The notes: generated by a model from the sequence alone, not told the origin. A DNA stretch of 64,000 nt from Acidobacteriota bacterium (GCA_016195325.1 JACPZX010000019.1:8628-72627); one strand, 5' to 3'. Counted from the stretch's first letter, positions 206-47,002 are shown. Numbers and translations are program-made.

Positions 206-3091
206 ATGGAGACCCTGTTCATCCTCGCCGCGATCGCGTTCACGCTCGCAGGCCCCGTCGCGTTCGCCATGGCGCTCAAGGCCGGCGGGCGCTCGAAGCG
301 GCTCGAGGAGCGGGTTCTGGATCTGGAGAGGCGGCTCGAGTCGGCGGAGCGCCGCCCAACCGCCCCGTCGCCTGCGGCCGCGGCCGTGGCGGTTCAAGCG
401 CCCGTGGCGGCTCCCGCTCACGGAACCTCTCCGGTGATCGTCCCCTCGTTCCGGACCCTCGCGACCGCACGACCGCTCCCCGCGATGCCGCCGCCGGCGG
501 CCTCCCGGCCCGCCGAGGCCGCCCCCCCGACGCTCCCGCGACGGCGCGACGTCGCGGGGTGGGAGGCGAAGATCGGCGGCTCGTGGCTCAACCGGATCGG
601 CGTCACGATGGTCGTCATCGGGATCGCCTTCGCGCTCGGTTACTCGCTCACGGTCCTCGGCCCCGCGGGGAAGGCGGCCCTCGCAGCCCTCGTCTCGATC
701 TCGATGCTCGCGGCGGGGATCGCCTTCGAGAAACGCGAGGCCTTCCGGCTCTACGGCCACGGGCTGGTGGCGGGCGGCTGGGCCGCACTCTATGCGACCG
801 CCTACGCCGTGCACGAGCTCGAGGCGACGCGCCTCGTCGAGGACCCGGTCGCCGGCTTCGCCCTGCTGATGGCCGTCGGCGCCGCCATGATCGTCCACTC
901 GCTGCGCTACCGGAGCGAGGGGATCACGGCCCTCGCGTACGCGCTCGCGTACGCGGCGATCTGCCTCCACAGCATCAGCGCGTACACCCTCTTCGCCGGA
1001 ACGATCCTCTCCGCCGGGATGGCCCTCCATCTTCTGAGGCGCCAGTGGTACCGGCTCGCCCTGGGGGGCGTCGTCGCGACCTACGGCTGCCTCTTCCTCT
1101 GGTACACGCGCCAGGCGGAGATGACCGCGGCCACGCTGAAGATCGGCCTCTCGGCGCTCTGTCTCGACTGGCTCACGTTCCTGATCGCCGATTTCGCGCC
1201 GGAGTCGCCGCGGGAGAGCGACAGGGAACACAGCCGCGCGGTGGCCCTCGTCAACGCCATGGCCGCCGGGGGACTCTCCTGGCTCGCGTGGAACAGGTTC
1301 GACGCCGCCGGCTCGTGGGTCCCCCTCGCGGCGCTCGGCCTCTGCTACGCCGTGACCTCGGCGGCGCTCCGCTCGATGGGCCGGGCGGCCGTGCACCCGG
1401 TGCACTCCGTCGCGGCGGCGCTCTGCGTCGGCTTCGCGGCGTTCGAAGGGCTCGACCTTCACGGAGCCACGTGGATCTGGCTCGCGGAGGCGCAGGCCAT
1501 CGTTCTCATCGGCGTCGCGCTGAAGGACCGCTTCCATCGGACGCTCGGATGCGCCCTCTTCCTCGCGCCCACTCTTGCGATCGTCGCCGATCAGGCCTCC
1601 GCCCGCATGGACCGGGTCGAGGCCATCTGGGTTCCCTCCCAGTTCGCCCTCACGGCGGCGGCCTGCGCCGCTTTCTACCTGACCTTCGCGAGGCTGCGAG
1701 CCTTCGCCCTGCGTCGTCTCTTTTCGTTCGGCGCGCTCGCGCTCATCCTTCTCGGCCTCTGGGTCCAGCTCCCCCGCGTCTACGTCGCGCCGGCCGGCGC
1801 GCTCCTCATGGTCATCCTCTTCGAGCTCTCGTCGGTCCGGCGGATCGTGGAGCTGCGCGTTCAGTCGTACGTCACGGCCCTCTTCACGGCGGCCGCCGCG
1901 GCCACGCTCACCGCACCCTCGACCGACGAGCTCATGGGCCACGCGGCGCGCCTTCCGGCCCTCCTCGCGGTGGCGGTCGCGTTCTTCGTCGTCTTCGCGA
2001 GCCGGCGGCGCGAGAGCGCTCCCCTCACGGAGTTCGACGTCACGCTGCAGAGCGCTGCCCCGTGGACCGGGACGGCCCTCGTCGCGCTGACCGTCTGGCT
2101 GTCGGCGAGGCCCGTGATGGTAGGGCCGGCGTGGATCCTCGCCGCCCTCGCGCTCGTCGAGGCCGGCATCGCCCTCAGGGAGCGCGCGCTCCGGCAGCCT
2201 GGCTACGCCCTCCTCCTTTGCGGGCACGCGAGCCTCCTCGTGTCGAACCTCACCGCGACCGAGATGGTGAGCGGGGTGTCGATCCGCGCCGCCACGATCG
2301 TCCCGTCGATCCTCGCGTCGTACTACCTCTGGTGGCGGCTGCGGGAGGCGGGCTCGGCCGCGGCGCCGGAGCGCGTCACGGACGGAACGGACGAGGGATA
2401 CGGACGATTCCTGGCCTACGCGGCCGGCGCGATGACCGGCCTCTTCGTCCGATTCCAGTTCGGCCTCGACGGGGCGGCGCTCCGGTGGTCCCTCACGATG
2501 GTGGGGCTCCTCGTCGCCGGCCATTACCTCAGGGACGCGGACCTCAGGCTCCAGGGATACCTCCTCGGCTTCGCGGCCTTCCTTCGCGCCGTGGGGCTCG
2601 ACCTCGACTCCGCGCCCCCCATCCTGGGGATGAACGGGCCGTTCTGCGTGGCGACGGCGAGCGTCGCGTCGTTCCTCGCCGCCGCGATCCTCCTCCGGGC
2701 GCGGCGAAGGGACGCCGCGAGCCGGGGGGCGGAGCGGAGGACGCTGCCGCTCGAGTCCCGGCTCGAGGCGATGGGGTTCGACGTGATGTCGATCCTCGCC
2801 GTGGCGATCGCGGCGGTCTACTCGTACCGAACGGCCTCCGGCTCGATGCTGATCGTGGCGTGGGCGATCGAGGGGCTGGTCGTCACCGCCGCCGGCTTCC
2901 TCATCCAGGCGCGCACCCTGCGCTTCGCGGGCCTCGGCCTCCTCACGACCGGACTCGCCATGACGATCTACCGCACCGTCACGACCTTCGACACCTTCGG
3001 GCGCATCGTCTCGTTCCTCGTCCTCGGCTCGGTCCTCCTCCTGGTCTCGTACGCCTACACGCGCTTCCGCGGCCCGCACAGGACGTCATGA
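206..3091 (+). CDS. large polytopic membrane protein, DUF2339-like
   Basis: ORF 179..3091. ATG at 206 is preceded by GGGGGAG. N-terminal TM helix, coiled segment LEERVLDLERRLESAERR, Pro/Ala linker, then more than 20 hydrophobic helices. Stop overlaps the next start (ATGA at 3088). Confidence 0.7.
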   Translation: METLFILAAIAFTLAGPVAFAMALKAGGRSKRLEERVLDLERRLESAERRPTAPSPAAAAVAVQAPVAAPAHGTSPVIVPSFRTLATARPLPAMPPPAASRPAEAAPPTLPRRRDVAGWEAKIGGSWLNRIGVTMVVIGIAFALGYSLTVLGPAGKAALAALVSISMLAAGIAFEKREAFRLYGHGLVAGGWAALYATAYAVHELEATRLVEDPVAGFALLMAVGAAMIVHSLRYRSEGITALAYALAYAAICLHSISAYTLFAGTILSAGMALHLLRRQWYRLALGGVVATYGCLFLWYTRQAEMTAATLKIGLSALCLDWLTFLIADFAPESPRESDREHSRAVALVNAMAAGGLSWLAWNRFDAAGSWVPLAALGLCYAVTSAALRSMGRAAVHPVHSVAAALCVGFAAFEGLDLHGATWIWLAEAQAIVLIGVALKDRFHRTLGCALFLAPTLAIVADQASARMDRVEAIWVPSQFALTAAACAAFYLTFARLRAFALRRLFSFGALALILLGLWVQLPRVYVAPAGALLMVILFELSSVRRIVELRVQSYVTALFTAAAAATLTAPSTDELMGHAARLPALLAVAVAFFVVFASRRRESAPLTEFDVTLQSAAPWTGTALVALTVWLSARPVMVGPAWILAALALVEAGIALRERALRQPGYALLLCGHASLLVSNLTATEMVSGVSIRAATIVPSILASYYLWWRLREAGSAAAPERVTDGTDEGYGRFLAYAAGAMTGLFVRFQFGLDGAALRWSLTMVGLLVAGHYLRDADLRLQGYLLGFAAFLRAVGLDLDSAPPILGMNGPFCVATASVASFLAAAILLRARRRDAASRGAERRTLPLESRLEAMGFDVMSILAVAIAAVYSYRTASGSMLIVAWAIEGLVVTAAGFLIQARTLRFAGLGLLTTGLAMTIYRTVTTFDTFGRIVSFLVLGSVLLLVSYAYTRFRGPHRTS

Positions 3092-4052: not shown

Positions 4053-5078
4053 ATGGCCGTCTCGATTCTCGCCGCCGTCACCGCCCCCCTCCCCGCGGCG
4101 TCGCCCGCGGCCCCGCACCCGGAGGCGGGCCCGGCCGCTGCGCCGGCGCCGGCGCCGTCTGCGGTCGAATCGATCCGCGAGGCGGCCGCCGTCCTGAGGC
4201 CCCTGGCCGCCTCCGACCTGACGCGCGCCTTCCTCGATGCGACCTCCACCCTGAAGTCGATCGCCCCGCGAACGCTCCTGAGGAACGCGGCGAAGACGCG
4301 GTACTACACGAAGACCGAGGCGGCCTCCCTGCCCGAGGCGGAGAGGTCGGCGCTCACCGAGACGACGATCGAAGAGCCCTTCTACTACAACACCCGCTAC
4401 GGCTCTCCCCTCGCATACGTGCGCCCTCTCGAGATCCTCGCCGCGGCGGGGACGTCGAGGCTCACGGGTCTGAGGCTCCTCGACTTCGGGTACGGATCGA
4501 TCGGGCACCTGAGGCTGATGGCGGCGCTCGGCGCCGAGGTGGTCGGCGTCGAGGTCGACCCGCTGCTGCGCGCCCTCTACGCCGCGGGGGGAGATCAGGG
4601 GAAGGTCGAGGGGAAGGGGGGTGTCACGGGAAGCCTGCGCCTCGTCGACGGGCAGTACCCGGCGACGGAGCAGGTGAAAAAGGAAGTCGGGGAGGGATTC
4701 GATCTCATCGTCTCGAAGAACGTCCTCAAGAAGGGTTACATCCACCCGGAGCGCCCCGCCGACGAGAGGCTCCTGGTCCATCTCGGCGTCGACGACGAGA
4801 CGTTCGTGGGGACGCTCCACGCGGCGCTCAGGCCCAGCGGGCGCGTCCTCATCTACAACCTCTGCCCGGCGCCGGCTCCCCCCGACAAGCCCTACATCCC
4901 GTGGGCCGACGGGCGATCCCCCTTCGCGCGGGAGATGTGGGAGCGCGCGGGGTTCCGGGTGGTCGCCTTCGACGCCGACGACGGTCCGGCGGCCCGCGCC
5001 ATGGCGCACGCCCTCGGCTGGGATGCGGATCTCTTCGCGACCTTCACGCTCGTGGAGAAGCCGCCCCCGACGCGCTGA
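4053..5078 (+). CDS. putative class I SAM-dependent methyltransferase-like protein with N-terminal signal-like region
   Basis: 3' part of ORF 3924..5078 from ATG 4053. LLDFGYGSIGHLRLMAALGAEVVGVEVDP resembles SAM-binding motif I. Assignment is tentative. Confidence 0.55.
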   Translation: MAVSILAAVTAPLPAASPAAPHPEAGPAAAPAPAPSAVESIREAAAVLRPLAASDLTRAFLDATSTLKSIAPRTLLRNAAKTRYYTKTEAASLPEAERSALTETTIEEPFYYNTRYGSPLAYVRPLEILAAAGTSRLTGLRLLDFGYGSIGHLRLMAALGAEVVGVEVDPLLRALYAAGGDQGKVEGKGGVTGSLRLVDGQYPATEQVKKEVGEGFDLIVSKNVLKKGYIHPERPADERLLVHLGVDDETFVGTLHAALRPSGRVLIYNLCPAPAPPDKPYIPWADGRSPFAREMWERAGFRVVAFDADDGPAARAMAHALGWDADLFATFTLVEKPPPTR

Positions 5079-6000
5079 GGATCCCGTCCTCGAGCCACGA
5101 CTCGACGAGCTGGGCGACGCGCCGCGCCGCCGCCGTCTCGGGCTCCTCCCCGACGGTGGGGCCTTCGTCCCGTGAGAGGTCGTCGAAGACGAGTTCGCCG
5201 ACTCGCGGGAGCGACGCCCCCCCCGCGGCCATCTCGATCAGGCACCGCCGCTCGTCCTCGCGGACGGTGCGGTGGTGGACGGCGAATCCCTTCCGGTAGA
5301 CGCGGATCGACGACGCGGCGGCGGCCGGTGGCTCGATCTCGAGGGGCTCGGCGTCGTGGACCTCGCACGTCTCGACCGACGCCGAGTGCGTCCCGTGCCG
5401 CTCGGGCTCCGCCGCGAGGTCCTCGACGCGGCGCCAGAGCGGCGCGACGCTCCAGGCGAGGTCCAGGAGCCTGAAGGCGGGGACGACGCGCAGGCCCAGA
5501 TCCGCGACCGCCTCGGGCGGGAGGCGTGTGAGATCGCCGCGGGTGAGAGGGGGCGCGTCGGCCTCGTCGAAGACGTCCACGCGGGCCCACTCGAGGCGCG
5601 CGAGATCGGCGAGGAAGGGGAACTCCCCGCGGGAAGCGTGGCGTTCGAGGTACGCGGGGAGCGCCTCGCCGAGATAGCGCAAAGACCAGTGTCCGCTTGG
5701 GTGCGCGAGGAGGTAGTCGGTGGCGAGGTTGTGGAAGCGCGCGCCGCCGATCACCGCGCGGAGCTTGGGGAAGTCCTCGGCGAGGGCGTCGCGCAGCCGG
5801 TAGAAGTACATGTCGGCGTAGATGTCGAGACGCTCCGTCGCGTCGAGCCGATCGTCGGGGCGGACCAGCGACGAGAGATCCGCGCTCGAAAGCGTTCCCG
5901 CCGCGACGAGATCCGCGGCCCCCGGGCCGACGCCGGTCGGCGCGGAGATCAGGTCCCACACGAGGCGCTCGACGCGATCGAGATCAGGCGCGGAGGACAT
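5044..6000 (-). CDS. DUF2063-family protein (BufC-like partner of an MNIO enzyme)
   Basis: ORF as given. RLDIYADMYFYRLRDALAEDFPKL and the overall layout are typical of DUF2063 proteins encoded right after DUF692 genes. It overlaps the upstream gene by 17 nt. Confidence 0.8.
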   Translation of the reverse strand: MSSAPDLDRVERLVWDLISAPTGVGPGAADLVAAGTLSSADLSSLVRPDDRLDATERLDIYADMYFYRLRDALAEDFPKLRAVIGGARFHNLATDYLLAHPSGHWSLRYLGEALPAYLERHASRGEFPFLADLARLEWARVDVFDEADAPPLTRGDLTRLPPEAVADLGLRVVPAFRLLDLAWSVAPLWRRVEDLAAEPERHGTHSASVETCEVHDAEPLEIEPPAAAASSIRVYRKGFAVHHRTVREDERRCLIEMAAGGASLPRVGELVFDDLSRDEGPTVGEEPETAAARRVAQLVESWLEDGILSASGAASPRA

Positions 6001-6811
6001 CGGCCTCGATCTCCTTCGCCCTCAGGCTCTCGGCCTCGAGGCGGTCCCATTCGGGGATGTTCCCGTCCCACTCGACCAGCGCCGGGATCGCGCCGAATCT
6101 CCTCACCGCATGGCGGTAGAGATCCCAGACCTCGTCGCGGACGGGGTGATCGTGGGTGTCGAGAAGGTGCGTGCCGTGATCCGAGTGGCCCGCGAGGTGG
6201 AACTGCCAGACGCGCTCGACCGGGATCGCCTCCACGTACTCGACGGGATCGAACCGGTGGTTCACTGAACTGACGAAGATGTTGTTCACGTCGAGGAGGA
6301 TGCCGCAGTCGGACCTCTCGGCGACCTCGCGGAGGAAGTCCCACTCCGTCATGTCGGAGGCGGTGTAGGTCAGGTACGACGAGACGTTCTCGAGGGCGAT
6401 CCGCCGCCCCAGCGCCTCCTGCACGCGCGCCACGCGCGAGGCGACGTGATCGAGCGATTCCTCGGTGTACGGGAGCGGGAGGAGATCGTGGGCGTTGCGG
6501 CCGCCGACGCCGGTCCAGCAGAGATGGTCCGAGACCCAGGCCGGCTCGACGCGCGCCGCGAGGTCCTTGAGGCGCGCCAGGTACGCGTCGTCGAGGGGGT
6601 CGGTGGTGCCGATCGAGAGGCTCACGCCGTGCAGCACGACGGGGTAGTCGCGGCGGACGCGGGTGAGGACGTCGAGCGGCCTGCCGCCGCGCACCATGAA
6701 GTTCTCGGAGATGACCTCGAACCAGCCGACGCGGGTGGGGGCCTGAAGGACGCGCTCGAAGTGATCGCGCCTCAACCCGACGCCGTGACCGAGAGAGGGA
6801 CGATCGCTCAA
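5984..6811 (-). CDS. DUF692 / MNIO (multinuclear non-heme iron oxidase, MbnB-like) enzyme, BufB-like
   Basis: GVGLRRDHF, WFEVISENFM, HGVSLSIG, DHLCW, LENVSSY and DVNNIFVS are hallmarks of UPF0276/DUF692 TIM-barrel proteins. Confidence 0.85.
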   Translation of the reverse strand: MSDRPSLGHGVGLRRDHFERVLQAPTRVGWFEVISENFMVRGGRPLDVLTRVRRDYPVVLHGVSLSIGTTDPLDDAYLARLKDLAARVEPAWVSDHLCWTGVGGRNAHDLLPLPYTEESLDHVASRVARVQEALGRRIALENVSSYLTYTASDMTEWDFLREVAERSDCGILLDVNNIFVSSVNHRFDPVEYVEAIPVERVWQFHLAGHSDHGTHLLDTHDHPVRDEVWDLYRHAVRRFGAIPALVEWDGNIPEWDRLEAESLRAKEIEADVLRA

Positions 6812-6895
6812 CCTGTCACCTGGCCCCCAAAAACTCGAGGCCCCGGCGCCGTGAGCAGCGCCGGGGCCCCTGAACTCACGAACCGGTTGCGTCGA

Positions 6896-7183
6896 TTACG
6901 CCTTCTTCTTGTCGGGGACGACGGTGCCCTTCTGATCCTTGCACTCCTTCTCGCTGCCGACCTTGACCCAGCCCTTGCCCTTGCACGAGTTCTTCCCGGA
7001 GCACTCGTGGCTGCCGTCGGCGGCGGAGCACTCTCCCTTGCCGGCGCAGGAGTTCACGCCCGCACACTTGACCGTCTTCGCGTCTTTCGCGTCCTTGCCC
7101 TCGGCCGCGAGGACGAAGCCCGAGGAGAGGAAACCCACAGCCGCCGTCGCGACGAGCAGTCCCGTGATCTTCTTGCCGTTCAT
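6896..7183 (-). CDS. bufferin-type RiPP precursor (Sec signal peptide plus 6-Cys core)
   Basis: 95 aa. Signal peptide MNGKKITGLLVATAAVGFLSSGFVLA. Core with two CxGxNSCxGKGxC-like motifs (CAGVNSCAGKGEC and CSGKNSCKGKGW..EC), 6 Cys in total. RBS GGAGG is 8 nt upstream. It sits directly upstream of the DUF692-DUF2063 pair. Confidence 0.8.
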   Translation of the reverse strand: MNGKKITGLLVATAAVGFLSSGFVLAAEGKDAKDAKTVKCAGVNSCAGKGECSAADGSHECSGKNSCKGKGWVKVGSEKECKDQKGTVVPDKKKA

Positions 7184-7774: not shown

Positions 7775-8197
7775 TCAGCGCGACTTTTTCTCCGGCAGGC
7801 TCACGCTCATCAGCACCTTCGCCGTGTCGGCCGTGGATCTGTACATCGCCTCCATCCGGAAGACCATCGAGCGAGGTCGCACGTGAAGGTCGCGGGCCGC
7901 CACGCCGTGCGCGCCGATGAGATCCCCCAGCGCATCGAAGGCCGCGAGGTTGACCCTCGCCTCCCCGTCCGTCCCGATCGACCGCACGTCGAGGTTGACG
8001 AGCCAGCGGTGGTAGAACATCTCGGACTCGATCGGCCGCAGCGTCACCTCGACGGTCCCGCAGGTCATGGAGAAGGGAGCGCTCCCCGCGAACTCCGGCG
8101 GCCGCAGCTCCTTCGTGCACGTCGCCGCGCGCGCCGGCGCCGCGAGGCCGAGTCCCGCGACGGCGGCGACGAGCGCAAGCCATGCGGCTCGCGTCAT
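7775..8197 (-). CDS. secreted hypothetical protein (140 aa)
   Basis: 3' part of ORF 7775..8329 from ATG 8197. GGAGGGAGG lies upstream, and the ATGA overlaps the yceI stop. Signal peptide MTRAAWLALVAAVAGLGLAAPARA. No family recognised. Confidence 0.55.
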   Translation of the reverse strand: MTRAAWLALVAAVAGLGLAAPARAATCTKELRPPEFAGSAPFSMTCGTVEVTLRPIESEMFYHRWLVNLDVRSIGTDGEARVNLAAFDALGDLIGAHGVAARDLHVRPRSMVFRMEAMYRSTADTAKVLMSVSLPEKKSR

Positions 8198-8814
8198 GGT
8201 CCTCCCTCCTTCCGGAAATGGATCTCGAACGAGAGATCGACGCCGTCCTGCGCGTGGTTGAGCGCGACGCTCGGATCCGGGACGCCGAACTCGCTGAGCT
8301 TGATCGCCACCGACCCCGACATGATCCACGCGGGCCCCGCGGAGCGCGAGAGGACGTCGACCGCGACGCGATGCGTCACCCCGTGGATCGTCAGATCGCC
8401 GTCCACCGAGAGGCGCGCTCCGCCGTCCGCCGCGGGGTCGCCCGCCCGGCGCGGCGGGCCGATCGATCGGAACTCGAGGGTCGGGTACTTCGCGACCTCG
8501 AGGTGCTCCTCGCGCATCTTGCGATCCCGCCGGCCGATTCCGGTCACGATCGTCGCCGCGTCGACGGAGAGGGCGACGGCGCCGTCCGCCCGCGGATCCC
8601 CCGACGCGGACCTCAGCCCTCCCGTGACGGCGCGCGTCGTCCCGGTCACGTCGTGCCAGAAGGTGTGGAGGACGAACTGCACGTGGCTCGGCGCGCTCTC
8701 CGCGATCCAGAGGGCGGGGGGGGCGGCGGGCGGGGGCGGCGCGGGGTCGACCGCGGCGCTCGCCGGCGGCGTCGCGCAGAGGGCGAGGGCCGCGGCGAGA
8801 AGGAGGGCTGTCAC
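8194..8814 (-). CDS. YceI-family (polyisoprenoid-binding-like) periplasmic protein
   Basis: 3' part of ORF 8194..9564. GTG at 8814 overlaps the KAS stop (GTGA). Signal peptide VTALLLAAALALCA. FVLHTFWHDVTG, GIGRRDRKMREEHLEVAKYPTLEF and GDLTIHGVTHRV are typical of YceI. Confidence 0.8.
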   Translation of the reverse strand: MTALLLAAALALCATPPASAAVDPAPPPPAAPPALWIAESAPSHVQFVLHTFWHDVTGTTRAVTGGLRSASGDPRADGAVALSVDAATIVTGIGRRDRKMREEHLEVAKYPTLEFRSIGPPRRAGDPAADGGARLSVDGDLTIHGVTHRVAVDVLSRSAGPAWIMSGSVAIKLSEFGVPDPSVALNHAQDGVDLSFEIHFRKEGGP

Positions 8815-10082
8815 CCGCGCCGCAGCACGAGCACGGAGTTCTTCGACCCGAAGCCGATGCAGTTGCACACCGCCCATTCTATCGAAGAGGCCCGCGGCGA
8901 GCCCGCCACGTGATCCAGCTCGCACTCCGGGTCCGGGTGATCGAGGTTGACCGTCGGCGGCAGATTCCCCTCGACGAGCGCGAGGGTCGACGCCGCGACC
9001 CCCAGCGAGCCGCTCGCCCCCTGGGGGTGCCCGAAGACGGACTTCGTCGCGCTGCACGGGGGAGGGGCCGCGCGCCGGCTGAAGGCCCTCCGGATCACGC
9101 GCGCCTCGACGACGTCGTTCTGCCGGGTCGCGGTGCCGTGAAGGTTCACGTACCCGACCGCCTCGGGCGGGCACCCCGCGTCGGCGAGCGCGATCTCGAT
9201 GGCGCGCGCCGGCTCCTCGCCCAGCGGGTCGAGCGACACTCGGTGGTAGGCGTCGCACGTCGCCCCCCATCCCGCGACCTCGGCGAGGGGCATCGCGCCG
9301 CGCGCGAGGGCGTGCTCGCGTTCCTCGAGGACGAAGATCCACGCCCCCTCGCCGATGACGAAGCCGTCGCGATCGCGATCGAAGGGGCGCGAGGCCCGCT
9401 CCGGCGTCTCGTTGAAAGCGGTCGAGACGACCTTCATGCGGCAGAAGCCCGCCATCAGCGCGGGGGTGATGCACGACTCGACCCCGCCGGTGAGGATCAC
9501 GTCGGCCACACCGGCGCGGATCGACTGCGCGGCGTAGCCGATGGCGTCGGTGGACGACGTGCACCCGGTGGACAGGACGTGGCTGAAGCCGGTGATGCCG
9601 AGCGCAATCGAGATGTCGCTGCTGAGGCTCCCGACGAACGACGTCGAGATGGCGTAAGGATTGATGAGGCGCGACTCCCCGCCGAAGTAATGGCGGTACT
9701 GCCTCTCGCCGAACTCGATCCCACCCGCCCCCGATCCGATGACGATGCCGAGCCCGCGCCGCGACGCCGCGTCGAGGGAGATGCCCGCGTGGGCCAGCGC
9801 CTCGCGGGCGGCCGCCACCCCCATGGGGCTCGCGCGCGACACGCGCCGCTCGTCGCCGGCCGCCATGTGCGGCGCCGGATCGAAGCCGCGCACCTCCCCC
9901 GCAACGCGCGACACGAGATCGCCCGCCGGAAAGAGGGTGATCGGGCCGGTGCAGCTCACGCCGGCGAAGAGGGCCCGCGCGAAGGCCTCTCTCCCCTCCC
10001 CCGCGGGCGTCACCATCCCCATGCCGGTGATCACGGCGCGGCGCCGCGACGACGCCGTCGCCCCCGGAGCGACGGCGGTCAT
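8811..10082 (-). CDS. beta-ketoacyl-ACP synthase, KAS I/II (FabF-like)
   Basis: 423 aa. AVITGMGMVTP N-terminus. Catalytic Cys in STGCTSS, His in DAYHRVS and NLHGTAT, C-terminal GFGSKNSVLV. Confidence 0.85.
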   Translation of the reverse strand: MTAVAPGATASSRRRAVITGMGMVTPAGEGREAFARALFAGVSCTGPITLFPAGDLVSRVAGEVRGFDPAPHMAAGDERRVSRASPMGVAAAREALAHAGISLDAASRRGLGIVIGSGAGGIEFGERQYRHYFGGESRLINPYAISTSFVGSLSSDISIALGITGFSHVLSTGCTSSTDAIGYAAQSIRAGVADVILTGGVESCITPALMAGFCRMKVVSTAFNETPERASRPFDRDRDGFVIGEGAWIFVLEEREHALARGAMPLAEVAGWGATCDAYHRVSLDPLGEEPARAIEIALADAGCPPEAVGYVNLHGTATRQNDVVEARVIRRAFSRRAAPPPCSATKSVFGHPQGASGSLGVAASTLALVEGNLPPTVNLDHPDPECELDHVAGSPRASSIEWAVCNCIGFGSKNSVLVLRRG

Positions 10083-10194
10083 CGCAAAGTCTCCGCGGTC
10101 ATCGCAGGGTCCCGGCAGTCATCGCAGGGTCTCCGCGTTCATCGCAGGGTCTCCGCGTTCATCGCAGGGTCTCCGCGGTCATCGCAGGGTCTCG
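10080..10194 (-). repeat. 20-bp tandem repeat, 5.75 copies, spanning the FAD-oxidoreductase stop and the KAS start
   Basis: Units CATCGCAGGGTCTCCGCGKT start at 10080, 10100, 10120, 10140, 10160 and 10180 (the last is partial). On the minus strand each unit reads GGAGACCCTGCGATGA, that is SD plus ATG plus overlapping TGA. Confidence 0.95.
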
Positions 10195-11402
10195 ATGACG
10201 AGAGGGCGCATGAAGTCCGGGGCGAGGAGCTTCCGGGGATCGCGGCACCCCGACGTCACGGCGATGAGCGTCGCGGCGAGGTCCTCGCGCCGGGCGAGGG
10301 CCGAGGCCACGCGCCGCGCGACGGGAGGGGCCGCGAGGAGCGCCTGGAGGGCCCGCGAGATCGCGTGGCGCGGGCGGAGCGCCGATCGGAGCGCGCGCTC
10401 GTACTCGCGGAGCGCCTCTTCCGCCGGCGCCGCGGCGCGAAGGATGAGGCTCGCCGCGCGCGCGGCCATCGCCCCGCCGGCGAGCGCGGCGTGGATCCCC
10501 TCGCCCGTGAAGGGATCGACGAAGGCCGCGGCGTCTCCGGCGATGAGGAGGCGGCCCGCGCCGAATCTCGACGTGCCACGGGCGAGAGGGCCCGCGCCGC
10601 GCACCCCGGTCACCCGCCGCGCCCCCGCGAAGCGGCGGCGCAGCTCGTCGCTCGAATCGATCAGACGGCGCAGAAGGGCGCCCGGATCCCGCGCGCCGTC
10701 GCGAAAGAGGCGCAAGCTCACGACCGCCGCCGCCCCGGCAACCCCGGGGCCGATCGGCGAGACGCCCACGTACCCGAGCGAGCCGCCGCCGAGCACGTGC
10801 ATCTCCCCCGCGTCCGAGAGATCCGTCACACCCTCGAACCACGCGGCCACGGCGTACCGGACCGGCCAGCGCGAGGGGCCTCCCCACCCGCGCCGCGCCG
10901 GTGTGAGCGCGTGCCGCCCACCCGCGTCGACCGCGACCTCCGCGTGGACGACGAGCGGCCCCGTCTCCTTCCCGCTCGCGCGCGCGACGACCCGGCCGCC
11001 GGCCTCCTCGATCGCCTCGACGCGCACCCCCTCGATGACGCACGCCCCGGCCGCCCGCGCGGCGCGCGCGAGGCCGACGTCGAGATCGCGGCGGCCGAGC
11101 GCCCAGCCGATCTCACCGGGGGGGAACGGCAGCGGAACGCGGGTCGCGTCGACCGAGAGGCGCATCCCGCGAAGGGGGGCCGCCCGCGCGGCCAGGAGGG
11201 AGTCGACCAGGCCGGCGTCGCGCAGGAGGCGCACCGAGCCCGGCGTGACGAAATCGCCGCAGATCTTGTGGCGGGGGAGGACTCCTTTTTCGAGCACGAC
11301 GACGCGGAATCCATCGCGCGCGAGGCTGGCCGCAGCCATGACCCCCGCCGGGCCGGCGCCCACGACCAGCGCGTCGCACTCGAGCCGCGCGGCGCCGCTC
11401 AG
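10179..11402 (-). CDS. FAD-dependent oxidoreductase, geranylgeranyl-reductase family
   Basis: 3' part of ORF 10179..11891. Rossmann motif DALVVGAGPAGVMAA, and GDAAAFVDPFTGEGI near the C-terminus. No ATG/GTG/TTG lies upstream of the GxGxxG motif. Candidate starts are CTG 11402 (CTGA overlap with the methyltransferase stop) or GTG 11363 (which would truncate beta-1). The start is uncertain. Confidence 0.75.
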   Translation of the reverse strand: MSGAARLECDALVVGAGPAGVMAAASLARDGFRVVVLEKGVLPRHKICGDFVTPGSVRLLRDAGLVDSLLAARAAPLRGMRLSVDATRVPLPFPPGEIGWALGRRDLDVGLARAARAAGACVIEGVRVEAIEEAGGRVVARASGKETGPLVVHAEVAVDAGGRHALTPARRGWGGPSRWPVRYAVAAWFEGVTDLSDAGEMHVLGGGSLGYVGVSPIGPGVAGAAAVVSLRLFRDGARDPGALLRRLIDSSDELRRRFAGARRVTGVRGAGPLARGTSRFGAGRLLIAGDAAAFVDPFTGEGIHAALAGGAMAARAASLILRAAAPAEEALREYERALRSALRPRHAISRALQALLAAPPVARRVASALARREDLAATLIAVTSGCRDPRKLLAPDFMRPLVIETLR

Positions 11403-12124
11403 GACGCCTCCCGTCCGTTCGAGTGGCGGTACGTGACGACGAGCCGGGCCGACCCCTGCCGGCGCACGCTGAGCCCCTCCCCCGGAAGCGCCACGGCGGC
11501 GGCGCGCATCTCGCCGGGGGTCAGCGCGCGACGCACCGACAGCGGTCCGTCGTGGAGCGTGAGCCGGTTGCGGGTCGTGAGGCGGGTGAGCGCCCAGACC
11601 GCGGAGTAGGCGAGAGCGGAGCGCCTCAGGTCGGCGACGACGAACCCGAGCCGCGTGACGCGGCGCATCTCGTCGAGCACGGAGGCGACCCCCGCGTCGT
11701 CGAGGTGGTGGAGGACGAGCGAGGAGTACGCGAGGGCGAAGGCGCCGTCGGCGTGCGGCAGCCGCCGGCCGTCGCTCTGGCACAGGGCGACGTCCCGGCC
11801 CGCGCGGCGCCGCGCCGAGGCGAGGGTCAGCATGCGCGAGTCGATGTCCGAGGCGACGATCCGCGGCACGAGGCCGCGGCGTCTCGCCCACGCCGAGACC
11901 TGGTGCGCGATGTCGCCGCCGCCGGCCCCGACGTCGAGGACGCGAAGCTCGCCTCCGCTCGGGAGATCGCGCGCGAGATCGGCCAGCCGGGAGACGACGA
12001 CCCTCGCGCCGCCGGTCAGGCGGCTGTAGCGGCCGAGATCGGCGAGGTTGTGGTCGAGCTCGGCCGCCGTGAAGGCGGTGCCGTCCATGATCTCGGGCGT
12101 GCGCGCGCGGACAGGGAAGAGCAT
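11399..12124 (-). CDS. class I SAM-dependent methyltransferase
   Basis: 241 aa. Motif I is RVLDVGAGGGDI. The post-I acidic residue is in ASDID. YSSLVLHHLDD. Confidence 0.8.
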   Translation of the reverse strand: MLFPVRARTPEIMDGTAFTAAELDHNLADLGRYSRLTGGARVVVSRLADLARDLPSGGELRVLDVGAGGGDIAHQVSAWARRRGLVPRIVASDIDSRMLTLASARRRAGRDVALCQSDGRRLPHADGAFALAYSSLVLHHLDDAGVASVLDEMRRVTRLGFVVADLRRSALAYSAVWALTRLTTRNRLTLHDGPLSVRRALTPGEMRAAAVALPGEGLSVRRQGSARLVVTYRHSNGREAS

Positions 12125-42405: not shown

Positions 42406-43274
42406 TTGGCCGACTATCTTCCGTGTCGGCCCGCCGTCTCTTCCCGGAGCCTACGAGGGTGACCCTGAGCCCCAACGTGCGCCGCGCCAACGTCCTCGCA
42501 GCCGCTGGCCTTCTCCTCGCCCTCGTCCCGTACACCCTCGCCTCCGCCGGAATCATCGAGCTGGGCCGCAAGGGGCAGCTGGCGGGCGGTAGCACGTTCA
42601 CCGTCATCGTCGAGGGGCGGACCTTCAGCGAGGGAAGCCACATCGTCACCGAAAACGTCGCGAGCATCGCCGAAAAGGTCCGGGCCAACATCGACGCGAG
42701 CCCCTTCTACACCGCGACCATTCCCGATCCAACCAACAACCCCACGAACATCACGATCTTGCGGGAGACGGGCATCGAGCCGTACTCGCTCGAGGTCTTC
42801 ATCAGCGACCCGAACATCGGCGGGGCCTTCGTCGACGCGGGCAGTCTCCCCTCCACGTCAGGCACCTTCCAGGGGGCGAACGCGATCGCTCACAACGGGA
42901 ACTTCGAGATCGACGTCACGGTCTTCTGCCCGGGGATGCCGCCGATGGTCTTCACGCACGTGGTCTCGACAGCCCCTGCCACGAAGACCGTTGCCGACGT
43001 CAACGCCGAAATGGTCGCGCTGCTCCGAGCGAGCGGCTTCTCCGTGAGCGGGCCGACCCTCGGCAACACCTACACCCTCTATGTGCAGAGCAACCAGCGC
43101 CTCCAGCGGATCGAGATGAACCGCACAGACACCGGCATCACCACGAGCGGCGTCGGTGAGACGACGCAGTCCCAGGCCAACGTCCCCACTCTCTCCGAGT
43201 GGGGCCTCGTCTTCCTGGCGGCTCTGGTGGCCCTCGGGGGCGCGCTTCTCCTTCGCCCCGGGTCTCCCGCCTGA
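42393..43274 (+). CDS. IPTL-CTERM sorting-domain protein (paralog 1)
   Basis: C-terminus VPTLSEWGLVFLAALVALGGALLLRPGS is the IPTL-CTERM type. The signal-like region LLLALVPYTLASAG and the body are collinear with the next gene. The start is uncertain (42393, 42459 or 42477). Confidence 0.75.
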   Translation: MTVRFGRLSSVSARRLFPEPTRVTLSPNVRRANVLAAAGLLLALVPYTLASAGIIELGRKGQLAGGSTFTVIVEGRTFSEGSHIVTENVASIAEKVRANIDASPFYTATIPDPTNNPTNITILRETGIEPYSLEVFISDPNIGGAFVDAGSLPSTSGTFQGANAIAHNGNFEIDVTVFCPGMPPMVFTHVVSTAPATKTVADVNAEMVALLRASGFSVSGPTLGNTYTLYVQSNQRLQRIEMNRTDTGITTSGVGETTQSQANVPTLSEWGLVFLAALVALGGALLLRPGSPA

Positions 43275-43277
43275 CGA

Positions 43278-43319
43278 CCGGTCCATGAGAGCCGGTCCAT
43301 GAGAGCATGAGAGGATGAG
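43278..43319 (+). repeat. short tandem repeat CCGGTCCATGAGAG x2, followed by CATGAGAG and GATGAG
   Basis: Units at 43278-43291 and 43292-43305, with partial units to 43319. It lies in the 51-nt spacer between the two IPTL-CTERM paralogs and supplies the purine-rich RBS region of the second gene. Confidence 0.85.
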
Positions 43320-43325
43320 CCGCGC

Positions 43326-44135
43326 ATGCGCCGATTGACGAGAACCCCGAGAGGCGCTGCCGCCCTTCTCATCGCACTCCTCCCGTGCACCCTCGTCTCG
43401 GCCGGCATCATCGAGCTGGGGAGGAAGGGTCAGCTCGCCGCGGGGAGCTCGTTCACGGTCCTGGTGGCGGGCACTCCTTTCTCCGACCCGAACCATGTGG
43501 CTGGTGAGGATGCCTCGGTCATCCTCGGGCGCATCCGGGCCCAGATCGCCGCGTCCGGCTACAACGCCGTCACCGTGACCAGTCCGACGGACCCCAACCT
43601 GAACGCGATCGGGATTACGAACGCGATGGGGATGGAGCCGGCCTCGCTTCAGGTCAACGTCTCCGACGCGAACATCGGCGGCGCCGTGGTCGACTTCGGC
43701 GCGCTCGGCGGAGCCACCGCGACCGTGGCGGGCGCCAACGCCGTCACCGGGAACGTGGGCGGCACCTTCGAGATCGACATCACCCTCACGACCGGGGCGC
43801 TCTTCACTCAGATCGTGACGACTCCCTCGAAGTCGGCCACGACGGTCAACAGCGATATGGTCGCGGCGCTCACGGCGAACGGATTCACCGTCGCCGGCCC
43901 GACGAACGGCCCGTGGACCATCTCGAGGGTGGGGGCGAACCTCGCGCGGGTTCAGATGAAACGCACGGACACGGGGATCAGCGTCAGCAACGTGACGCTC
44001 GTCTCGGCGCCCGCGCCCTCCGCGCCGGTGATCGTGGCGACCATCGGGACGCCGATCCCGACGCTCTCGGAGTGGGGGCTGGTCTTCCTCGCCGCGCTCG
44101 TCGCCCTCGCGGGGATCCTCCGCCTCCGGAGCTGA
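43326..44135 (+). CDS. IPTL-CTERM sorting-domain protein (paralog 2)
   Basis: Signal peptide MRRLTRTPRGAAALLIALLPCTLVSAG. Shared block GIIELGRKGQLAAGSSFTV. C-terminus IPTLSEWGLVFLAALVALAGILRLRS. Confidence 0.8.
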   Translation: MRRLTRTPRGAAALLIALLPCTLVSAGIIELGRKGQLAAGSSFTVLVAGTPFSDPNHVAGEDASVILGRIRAQIAASGYNAVTVTSPTDPNLNAIGITNAMGMEPASLQVNVSDANIGGAVVDFGALGGATATVAGANAVTGNVGGTFEIDITLTTGALFTQIVTTPSKSATTVNSDMVAALTANGFTVAGPTNGPWTISRVGANLARVQMKRTDTGISVSNVTLVSAPAPSAPVIVATIGTPIPTLSEWGLVFLAALVALAGILRLRS

Positions 44136-45310: not shown

Positions 45311-47002
45311 ATGTCACGATTCACCGTCGCCGCTCTCGTACTCGCCTCGGGCATCACGTTGATTTCGGCCCAGCCCGTCAAGAACGGGCCCGAGATCCAG
45401 GTCAACACCCACCAGCCCGGCTCCCAGCAGCGCGCCTCCGTCGGCCGGGATGGCCTCGGAAACTTCGTGGTCGCGTGGCAGAGCGAGGGGCAGGATGGCT
45501 CAGGATACGGCATCTTCGGCAGGAGGTTCGGCGCGTCGGGCACCGCCGCCGGCGGCGAGTTCCAGATCAACACCTACACGCCGAACGATCAGTACGCTCC
45601 GAAAATCGCGATGAACCCGTTCGGCGAGTTCGTCGTCGTGTGGTACAGCTACCGCCAGGACGGGTCCGGATACGGCGTCTTCGGCCAGCGCTTCACGAGC
45701 GCCGGGTCCGCTCAGGGGAGCGAGTTCAGGATCAACACCAGCACCCTGGGAGATCAGTTCGACCCATCGGTCGCCATCGGCGACTCCGGCGAGTTCGTGG
45801 TCGCGTGGACCAGCTACGCCCAGGATGGCTCGGCGGACGGAGTGTTCGGCCAGCGCTTCGACAGCGCGGGCGTGCCCCAGGGGACCGAGTTCCAGGTGAA
45901 CACGTACACGACCAGCGACCAGCGGAAGGCGGCCGTCAGCGTCGGCCCGCTGGGCGAGTTCACCGTCGCGTGGGAGAGCTTCGGGCAGGACGGATCCAAT
46001 CTCGGGGTCTTCGGCCAGAGGTTCGACAGCTCCGGCGCCCCGCAGGGGGCCGAGTTCGCGGTGAACACCTACACGACCAACCGGCAGCAGCTTCCTTCCA
46101 TCGGCACGGACTCCTCGGGCAACTTCGTGGTGGCATGGCAGAGCCGCAACCAGGATGGCTCGGGCGACGGCGTCCTCGCCCGGCGGTTCGACAGCACCGG
46201 CGCCGCGCTGGGGACCGAGTTCCAGGCGAACACGTTCACGACCGGCAATCAGAACTCCGCCTCCGTCGGCATCGACCCCTTCGGCGAGTTCACGGTGGCG
46301 TGGCAGAGCTACGGGCAAGATGGCGACGGCTTCGGAATCGTGGGACGGCACTTCAGCTCCAGCGGTGCGCCCGCGGGGGGCGAGTTCCTCGTGAACTCCT
46401 CCACCACCGGCTACCAGACGCAGCCCGAGGTGGCCATGGACCCGCAGGGGGACTTCGTCGTCGTGTGGCAGGACGATTTCCTGACCGGTTCGTTCGGCGT
46501 CTTCGCCCAGAGCTTCTCCGGCCCGCTCTCGTGCCCTCCCGGCGATGCCGATGGGGACGCCGTCTGCGACAGCGTCGACAATTGCCTCTCCCTCTACAAC
46601 CCCGGCCAGGACGACACCGACCACGACGGTGTCGGGGACGCCTGCGACGTCATGATCACCGCTCCTCCCGGCGGAACGACCCTCGACTGCAACACCCCCC
46701 TGACCGTCCGGCCGACGATCACCTGGGACGGCGGGATGTACGACACATTCAGAGTGTTCGTCAGCCCGGATCCGAACTTTCCCGCGAACAACCGCGTCTC
46801 GAGCGGCGCAGGCGCGCTGAAGACAACGAGCTACACGCCCCCGGGGAGGAAATGGAAGGGAGCCTGCGCGAGGGCGAAGAAGGCGAACCCCACGGACCCC
46901 GTTCTGTTCATCAAGCTCTTCGGACAGGACCTCCAGGCCACGGCCGCCAACCCCGACCGGCGCACCTTCAGTAATGTCGTCAAGGTCTTCGTCACACCCT
47001 GA
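45311..47002 (+). CDS. secreted protein with eight ~47-aa EFQVNTYTT-type repeats, a TSP3-like Asp-rich segment and a conserved C-terminal domain (paralog of 34967..36568)
   Basis: ATG 45311 with GGAGG 8 nt upstream. Signal peptide MSRFTVAALVLASGITLISA. DADGDAVCDSVDNCLSLYNPGQDDTDHDGVGDACD is a calcium-binding-type repeat. The C-terminus RPTITWDGGMYDTFRVFV..PPGRKWKGAC matches the paralog. Confidence 0.8.
   Translation: MSRFTVAALVLASGITLISAQPVKNGPEIQVNTHQPGSQQRASVGRDGLGNFVVAWQSEGQDGSGYGIFGRRFGASGTAAGGEFQINTYTPNDQYAPKIAMNPFGEFVVVWYSYRQDGSGYGVFGQRFTSAGSAQGSEFRINTSTLGDQFDPSVAIGDSGEFVVAWTSYAQDGSADGVFGQRFDSAGVPQGTEFQVNTYTTSDQRKAAVSVGPLGEFTVAWESFGQDGSNLGVFGQRFDSSGAPQGAEFAVNTYTTNRQQLPSIGTDSSGNFVVAWQSRNQDGSGDGVLARRFDSTGAALGTEFQANTFTTGNQNSASVGIDPFGEFTVAWQSYGQDGDGFGIVGRHFSSSGAPAGGEFLVNSSTTGYQTQPEVAMDPQGDFVVVWQDDFLTGSFGVFAQSFSGPLSCPPGDADGDAVCDSVDNCLSLYNPGQDDTDHDGVGDACDVMITAPPGGTTLDCNTPLTVRPTITWDGGMYDTFRVFVSPDPNFPANNRVSSGAGALKTTSYTPPGRKWKGACARAKKANPTDPVLFIKLFGQDLQATAANPDRRTFSNVVKVFVTP

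Follow-up and report, generated by a model that had tools for sequence, protein, structure and literature searches.

Between neighbouring genes of an operon, a spacing of −4 nt between stop and start codons is the most efficient for the hand-over of ribosomes, which is further helped by a Shine-Dalgarno (SD) sequence (PMC12548453). Coupling can also act by unfolding an inhibitory structure, and short upstream open reading frames (uORFs) can deliver ribosomes (PMC12548453). In arrays of mycobacterial interspersed repetitive units (MIRUs), for example in the senX3-regX3 intergenic region, an ORF borne by the repeat couples at −4 nt and the insertion is harmless (Supply et al. 1997, Mol Microbiol 26:991, summarised in PMC12548453). 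MIRU units of 77/53 bp vary in copy number between lineages (PMC4213456), and MIRUs in general measure 40-100 bp, occupy about 41 dispersed loci and are thought to be mobile (PMC2734929). Here we describe a tandem array in a 64,000-nt stretch of DNA from an Acidobacteriota bacterium (GCA_016195325.1, JACPZX010000019.1:8628-72627; hereafter the window, in whose coordinates all positions are given). The array consists of six 20-nt units and lies at the junction of two minus-strand operon genes, one encoding an FAD-dependent oxidoreductase (the FAD gene) and the other a FabF-like beta-ketoacyl-ACP synthase (KAS). It encodes a relay of overlapping mini-ORFs which ends on a KAS start codon predicted to be buried in a hairpin. 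We favour, with moderate confidence, the explanation that this is a junction repeat born by slippage and tolerated as it keeps the hand-over of ribosomes to a structurally locked KAS start.

The array spans 10074..10193 (−) and has the consensus GAGACCCTGCGATGACCGCG, with an ATGA in each unit. Read in minus-strand order from 10193 to 10074, unit 1 equals the consensus, units 2 and 3 are both GAGACCCTGCGATGAACGCG, and units 4, 5 and 6 are GAGACCCTGCGATGACTGCC, GGGACCCTGCGATGACCGCG and GAGACTTTGCGATGACCGCC, respectively; units 2 and 3 are the only identical ones, the remaining units varying at 1-3 positions. Tandem Repeats Finder (TRF) reports it at 10075-10193, with a period of 20, 5.9 copies, 89% matches, 0% indels and a score of 189, which makes it the top-scoring short-period array in the window. 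The 15-mer core GAGACCCTGCGATGA, searched with up to 2 mismatches, occurs six times in the 64-kb window, where 0.38 occurrences are expected and where 0 of 100 shuffles reached six; all six lie within the array, with no copy of the unit outside it. Unit parsing, TRF and the core count agree with a previous reading of the window from sequence alone (the sequence-only reading), which had proposed that the junction was amplified as a 20-nt tandem. The six-link ATGA chain is the single instance in the window and 1.10 Mb of related loci, and 200 Markov simulations produced no chain of three or more ATGA links. A degenerate two-unit pattern gave 0 hits in JGI metagenome contigs, a search which AGA-type units (such as the one in contig X6, described below) would escape.

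The FAD ORF ends ...PLVIETLR*, with its stop codon TGA (10181-10179) within unit 1. From this stop to the KAS ATG at 10082 in unit 6 run five mini-ORFs of seven codons, the stop of each overlapping the next ATG: MTAETLR (10159..10182), whose ATG overlaps the FAD stop; MNAETLR twice (10139..10162 and 10119..10142); MTAGTLR (10099..10122); and MTAETLR again (10079..10102), whose stop TGA (10081-10079) overlaps the KAS ATG. When recomputed, the five peptides, their starts (10182, 10162, 10142, 10122 and 10102) and the final ATG at 10082 came out the same as in the sequence-only reading, which had also placed a GGAG 8 nt before each start. This second claim is correct for four of the six ATGs, namely those of mini-ORFs 2, 3 and 4 and that of KAS, and fails for 10182 and 10102, which are preceded by CGAG and CGGG. 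The remaining junctions of the operon are single 4-nt overlaps, as had been stated: CTGA between the methyltransferase gene (MT) and the FAD gene, GTGA between KAS and the YceI-family gene, and ATGA between the latter and the next gene, which was read from the ORF at 7775-8329.

The mRNA is predicted to fold into a hairpin over the KAS AUG (10040..10086, −) with 19 bp, one bulge and −33.6 kcal/mol, UGCGAUGAC.CGCCGUCGCUCC-GGG-GGCGACGGCGUCGUCGC (10086-10040), a stability matched by 0.04% of 18,274 segments of 47 nt taken from both strands of the window. Its 5′ arm is made of the end of unit 6 and KAS codons 1-6, and its 3′ arm of KAS codons 8-13, which fall in 27 extra nt absent from the closest relative (X6). 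The fold of the region has a z of −3.0 relative to shuffles, and the centroid structure retains this hairpin alone. The predicted probability of being unpaired is 0.01-0.03 for the KAS AUG versus 0.78-0.84 for the AUGs at 10162, 10142, 10122 and 10102 (0.81, 0.84 and 0.78 for the first three); for the AUG of mini-ORF 1 it is 0.25.

The array was most likely born by replication slippage or unequal recombination, at a boundary free to vary in length, and it would persist because it is translationally transparent. With the KAS AUG buried in the hairpin, an arriving ribosome is probably required to open this structure for initiation, and a ribosome ending mini-ORF 5 on the overlapping UGA/AUG, with the 5′ arm of the hairpin in its mRNA channel, could reinitiate at KAS. 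Given its −4 spacing and the locked KAS AUG, the relay is well placed for the serial termination-reinitiation suggested in the sequence-only reading. For ribosomes derived from the FAD gene this would be an inefficient route, as six serial reinitiations entail a multiplicative loss, and de novo loading at the open, mostly GGAG-preceded mini-ORF AUGs nearest KAS probably supplies most of the ribosomes that reach KAS. The mini-ORFs would serve as ribosome-delivery uORFs, and the array would preserve melting of the hairpin yet tie KAS translation less tightly, in quantity, to that of the FAD gene. We take the mini-ORFs to be translated and KAS to depend on them, and regard the array as near-neutral and not adaptive, all three being inferences.

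A single junction is found in four orthologous operons and in the closest relative, in a comparison which left out the KAS loci of about 50% identity from the genome scan, mostly located in other genomic contexts. L074 and L075 (KAS 84% identical) have one 4-nt overlap, CGATGAGC, while L001 (KAS 81%) and L002 (76%) have one GTGA overlap each. The closest relative is a soil-metagenome organism (loci L073 and L076; KAS 94%, FAD 81%), whose FAD gene ends ...ATC GAG ACC CTG AG at the end of a JGI contig. An 842-nt Logan contig, X6, bridges this junction, joining window position 10171 to 10043 and skipping 127 nt, which correspond to 100 nt (five units) plus 27 nt. In the sense direction, the letters abutting 10171 are CGC CGC GCG GTC ATC ACC GGC ATG GGG ATG, and 12 nt alone separate GAGACCCTGAG from CGCCGCGCGGTCATC, the conserved RRAVITG codons, leaving one junction and no array. 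Aligned to ATGACCGCGGAG, these 12 nt imply 2 mismatches; the start context of X6 and its predicted 10-bp AUG stem are provisional. A repeat-induced break had been considered for the ends of the L073 and L076 contigs short of the junction, and was rejected given that the bridging X6 contig holds a single junction.

Judging from these comparisons, the array is a derived, lineage-specific amplification of the local FAD-KAS junction (CGATGA), and it is younger than the split from the closest relative. The divergence of about 6% between units, versus about 11.5% (18 of 157 nt) between the window and X6 in the adjoining FAD sequence, fits this age. Both sides of the boundary are hypervariable in length among orthologues (window 10179-10260 and 10040-10082 (−), compared with L001, L002, L074, L075 and L076): the FAD C-terminal tail extends 8 to about 30 residues past the conserved ...PL(V/L)(I/L)E, and the KAS N-terminus 4-12 residues before RR(A/V)VITG. 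Because both lengths vary in all orthologues, the boundary is indel-rich and weakly constrained. The shortest FAD tail (IETLR*) is common to the window and X6.

Why duplication of this junction gives a relay is a matter of arithmetic. In a repeat with period p whose unit holds ATGA, the next TGA lies p+1 nt after the A of ATG and is in frame only if p = 2 mod 3; with p = 1 mod 3 there is a relay at every second unit, and with multiples of 3 there is none. The five-ORF relay is therefore an automatic product of duplication, because the 20-nt unit holds ATGA and 20 = 2 mod 3. The chimeric MTA+ETLR peptides arise equally automatically, as does the new GGAG, which is composed of the G ending one unit and the GAG opening the next, and any integer copy number regenerates an ATGA relay into the KAS ATG. 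Four of the six substitutions between units are synonymous in the relay register (ACC>ACT twice, CTG>TTG and GCG>GCC) versus one of six in each other register, which is a weak hint at most (P roughly 0.04). Selection for periods of 2 mod 3 was considered as a separate candidate and rejected, given that the chain finder is biased to that class and that the count in the TRF census given below is not significant.

Several observations weigh against a tolerated relay on which KAS depends. Seven arrays with at least three evenly spaced [AG]TGA were found in an unbiased TRF census of 1.17 Mb (the window and fetched loci), four with p = 2 mod 3, three with p = 1 and none with p = 0, which is no significant excess. 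That all six ATGA are intact has a P of about 0.2, and the absence of indels is likewise not statistically informative. The KAS start is open in L074, L075 and L002, for which reason a start-codon occlusion conserved across all orthologues was rejected, and in L001 it is occluded without a relay. Between 17 and 28% of random triplets are just as occluded, and the SD sequence of KAS is predicted to be partly accessible, so that independent initiation is possible. Finally, a search for RNA runs holding the operon found none.

It is conceivable, though improbable, that junction-derived ATGA relays are not tolerated debris and instead a recurrent, selected solution, in the form of accessible SD-AUG loading pads ending on a locked start. 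KAS would then be freed from strict dependence on upstream translation, with the FAD:KAS ratio set by copy number, and such relays would have arisen convergently at the FAD-KAS boundary of two Acidobacteriota-type lineages (a 20-nt unit six times here and an 8-nt unit three times in L077) and possibly again at 43285-43338 of the window. In L077, a distant relative represented by a metagenome contig, the homologous operon (FAD 42%, KAS 66%) has its FAD-KAS junction independently amplified as three copies of the 8-nt unit ATGAGMSG. Its positions 1781-1811 (+) read GGT[ATGA]CGGG[ATGA]GCGG[ATGA]GACG[ATGA]GCGCGCGG; the FAD stop is the second TGA, after which come the 3-codon ORFs MSG and MRR and then KAS (MSARRVVISG), from the fourth ATGA. 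The predicted probability of being unpaired is 0.05 for the KAS AUG of L077 and 0.82-0.84 for its mini-ORF AUGs, and the sister loci L079, L085 and L078 have a single junction and open KAS starts (0.94, 0.67 and 0.45, respectively). A relay thus coincides with a predicted occluded KAS start in two of two cases (the window and L077), which is suggestive only. This convergence also counts in favour of the tolerated relay that we prefer.

The window holds a second ATGA relay at 43278-43338 (+), made of a tandem of CCGGTCCATGAGAG twice and CATGAGAG twice followed by GATGAG, with its ATGA chain at 43285-43338 and periods of 14 and 8, both 2 mod 3. It opens 10 nt past the TGA of the upstream ORF (43272-43274) and encodes the ATGA-linked MRAGP*, MRA* and MRG*, followed by MSRACAD* across the ATG at 43326, where a gene begins whose 269-aa product has a signal peptide. 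ATGA-linked mini-ORFs which are conserved and not repeats (MNVK and MMAT/MMTI, with spacings of 11 and 11) were also seen in three Thermoflexus/Chloroflexota contigs, L037 (−) 5257-5317, L038 (−) 11016-11076 and L047 (−) 4853-4913 (strand coordinates), where they precede a gene starting MSKIDTSAYYLDSHEWIRPANDGSDEW, GcvH-like by eye.

We also doubt that the array dampens or insulates KAS expression. According to this explanation, decoy starts 20 nt apart, which is less than a ribosome footprint, would occlude each other and the KAS ribosome-binding site (RBS), and six reinitiation steps would dilute FAD-derived ribosomes, bringing KAS output below that of a single junction. Experiments in S. 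meliloti have demonstrated that ribosomes at a nearby upstream RBS can occlude the main one (PMC13285730), and a reinitiation efficiency below one would, extrapolating from PMC12548453, be multiplied over the six links. However, mini-ORF 5 terminates precisely at the −4 spacing to the KAS AUG, which is the best geometry for hand-over, and if nothing upstream were translated the predicted hairpin would by itself be enough to silence KAS.

The source is a groundwater metagenome, from which an Acidobacteriota-like metagenome-assembled genome was obtained by short-read assembly, and the array was checked on the Logan unitigs (k=31) of runs X1-X3 rather than on raw reads. X1 resolves the array region into exactly four unitigs: 9500-10148 (depth 8.4), with units 6, 5, 4 and part of 3 and unique flank; 10148-10510 (depth 7.7), with units 3/2 and 1 and the FAD gene; and two short unitigs of 39 nt (depth 19.6) and 41 nt (depth 12). 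This topology is the de Bruijn graph expected of at least two identical AAC-type units between unique variant units. The depths of the repeated unitigs are 2.4x and 1.5x those of the flanks (about 8), which fits two to three AAC units and is within noise at about 8x; the array truly has six copies, with a seventh possible in some of the population. In X3, from a different sample, one unitig matches 9982-10161 exactly, and the variant units are exactly reproduced in independent unitigs of X1, X2 and X3. No alternative-allele k-mers, paths, joints or loose ends at the junction were found in the X1-X3 unitigs; heterogeneity of the array in the population, which the sequence-only reading had raised, was not demonstrated.

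Elsewhere in the region, single-base differences of strain level set the X1/X2 unitigs apart from the window at 9913, 10574, 10614 and 10714-10749. At the last of these X1 has two alternative 96-nt unitigs (depths 4.5 and 4.63), and at least two strains therefore coexist in the source samples.

The sequence-only reading had further suggested that slippage in copy number could offer a tunable or phase-variable coupling device. In such a device, the copy number of the 20-mer would set KAS relative to the FAD enzyme. We consider an adaptive role of this kind unlikely. The copy number does differ between close lineages (6 here versus 1 in X6), the depths of 19.6 and 12 could reflect a mixture of six and seven copies, L077 amplified the same junction independently, and for M. 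tuberculosis fpg1 a correlation of expression with the length of an upstream variable number tandem repeat (VNTR) has been described (PMC2734929). Nevertheless, the units have diverged at six positions and only two neighbours are identical, making the array a poor substrate for slippage, the unitigs of X1-X3 give no sign of other alleles and the excess in depth does not exceed noise. Moreover, slippage cannot switch KAS on or off, because any integer copy number regenerates the relay, and graded effects alone remain. The phase-variable device is therefore not supported, while adaptive tuning gains some plausibility from the 8-nt case of L077 and the second chain in the window, without ceasing to be unlikely.

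A function at the DNA level, in which repeats about two helical turns apart act as iteron- or operator-like binding sites or as an internal promoter, is very unlikely. The regular 20-bp spacing would suit it, and promoter activity has been reported for the senX3-regX3 MIRU region (PMC4213456), but there is no sigma-70-like promoter or terminator in 9800-10500, an Rfam scan of the junction gave no family beyond chance, and the unit is a local coding junction, absent from relatives which keep the operon. An assembly artefact replacing a single junction of the real genome, to which the short-read metagenome assembly and the unitig breaks inside the array might have pointed, can be set aside, because one junction cannot yield four distinct unit variants, and because units 6-5-4-3 and units 3-2-1 each run without a break into unique flanking sequence in the unitigs, X3 is exact across 9982-10161, and graph topology and depths fit at least two identical units.

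The operon has the order MT-FAD-KAS-YceI-small secreted protein, with a bufferin-type cluster for a ribosomally synthesised and post-translationally modified peptide (RiPP) downstream, and is conserved in uncultured Acidobacteriota. Its first gene encodes a class I S-adenosylmethionine (SAM) methyltransferase (MT; 11399..12124, −; PF13649/PF08241, NCBIfam PRK06202-like below cut-off), with an accessible start AUG (probability of being unpaired 0.98). The FAD gene (10179..11402, −; PF01494 FAD_binding_3) belongs to the geranylgeranyl reductase family (TIGR02032, 134 bits, below cut-off). It has no canonical start before its GxGxxG motif, the sole candidate being CTG 11402, which overlaps the MT stop (CTGA; region 11399-11405, −), lies 4 nt downstream of a GGGAGG SD and is occluded (probability of being unpaired 0.06). 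The KAS gene (8811..10082, −; PF00109+PF02801; NF005589, 418.6 bits, cut-off 387) has ATG 10082 as its sole canonical in-frame start before the conserved RRAVITGMG motif, and an exact-protein look-up with the window KAS returned no record. The YceI-family gene (8194..8814, −) starts with a GTG overlapping the KAS stop (GTGA), in the same gene order as in L075, and the small secreted-protein gene (MTRAAWLALVAAVAGLGLAAPARA...; 7775..8197, −) starts with an ATG overlapping the YceI stop (ATGA); L075 holds a 141-aa gene in the latter's place.

The bufferin-type copper RiPP cluster lies at 5044-7183 (−) and comprises a BufA2-family precursor (6896-7183, −; NF050166, 66.7 bits, cut-off 60), an MbnB/TglH/ChrH enzyme (5984-6811, −; PF05114, 374 bits) and a DUF2063/HvfC gene (5044-6000, −), a neighbourhood shared by L075. 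More remote forms of the operon (KAS 35-45% identical) carry a gene of about 145 aa between FAD and KAS in 21 loci (L092-L154 range, including L142, L122, L154 and L105), with a gap of 418-470 nt from FAD stop to KAS start. The inserted gene has a conserved ...ERWPE.LPHYRYV... motif, is SRPBCC-like by eye and is joined mostly by single ATGA/GTGA overlaps on both sides. A further tandem repeat of the window, at 45820-46309 (+), has a 165-nt unit present 3.0 times (69% matches, TRF score 453); its unit length is a multiple of 3 and it is probably a 55-aa protein repeat.

Provided that the mini-ORFs are translated, this locus would offer a naturally occurring example of termination-reinitiation in series, through five 7-codon ORFs onto a hairpin-locked start, and a test bed for the efficiency of each reinitiation step and for 70S versus 30S carry-over. 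It also suggests a general rule, namely that overlapping stop/start junctions may expand tandemly without breaking the operon unless the unit length is a multiple of three. MIRU insertion in mycobacteria has been proposed to follow the same logic; here the phylum is unrelated and the unit is locally derived. Such arrays fragment short-read assemblies and can mislead gene prediction where operon genes meet. Should the array be no more than debris of slippage that is tolerated, its importance would be modest, that of a curiosity.

Compared with known systems, the array resembles termination-reinitiation coupling in its six consecutive −4 ATGA overlaps, which fall within the −4 to +3 rule, and in the SD-like GGAG located inside the upstream ORF at most links; the predicted inhibitory hairpin over the downstream KAS start recalls coupling by RNA unfolding. 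Known coupling, however, involves two real genes and one junction, whereas the array has six junctions and five 7-codon ORFs without plausible protein function. These mini-ORFs also resemble ribosome-delivery uORFs and bicistronic-design leaders (Shell et al. 2015, cited in PMC12548453; S. meliloti, PMC13285730), in which a short ORF whose RBS is accessible terminates on the main start codon and passes its ribosome on, so that inhibitory structure is bypassed. Delivery uORFs are single and located in 5′ leaders, whereas the array is an internal, repeated series derived from a duplicated intercistronic junction. With the simple sequence repeats of phase-variable contingency loci it shares a tandem repeat at a translation start region, whose copy number slippage could alter. 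It differs from them in its 20-nt, diverged units (89% matches, units 2 and 3 alone being identical) and in that gain or loss of a unit keeps the frame logic, with no promoter in the array and therefore no ON/OFF switch; it does not qualify as a classic locus of phase variation.

The closest parallel is with MIRU arrays, which likewise place tandem units between co-oriented operon genes, with a small ORF in each unit joining the downstream gene at −4 nt. The array unit is 20 nt long, derives from the local junction, whose sequence recurs in the single junction of the relatives, and occurs in Acidobacteriota, whereas MIRUs are 40-100 bp long and belong to mycobacterial sequence classes. MIRUs are dispersed, while the array unit has no second copy in the 64-kb window; as to copy number, which in MIRUs is polymorphic between strains, the array has six copies versus one in a relative with a 94% identical KAS, and the source samples give a hint, in unitig depth, of two to three AAC units. 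Going by its sequence, the array is not a member of the MIRU family, yet it appears to work as a MIRU array does.

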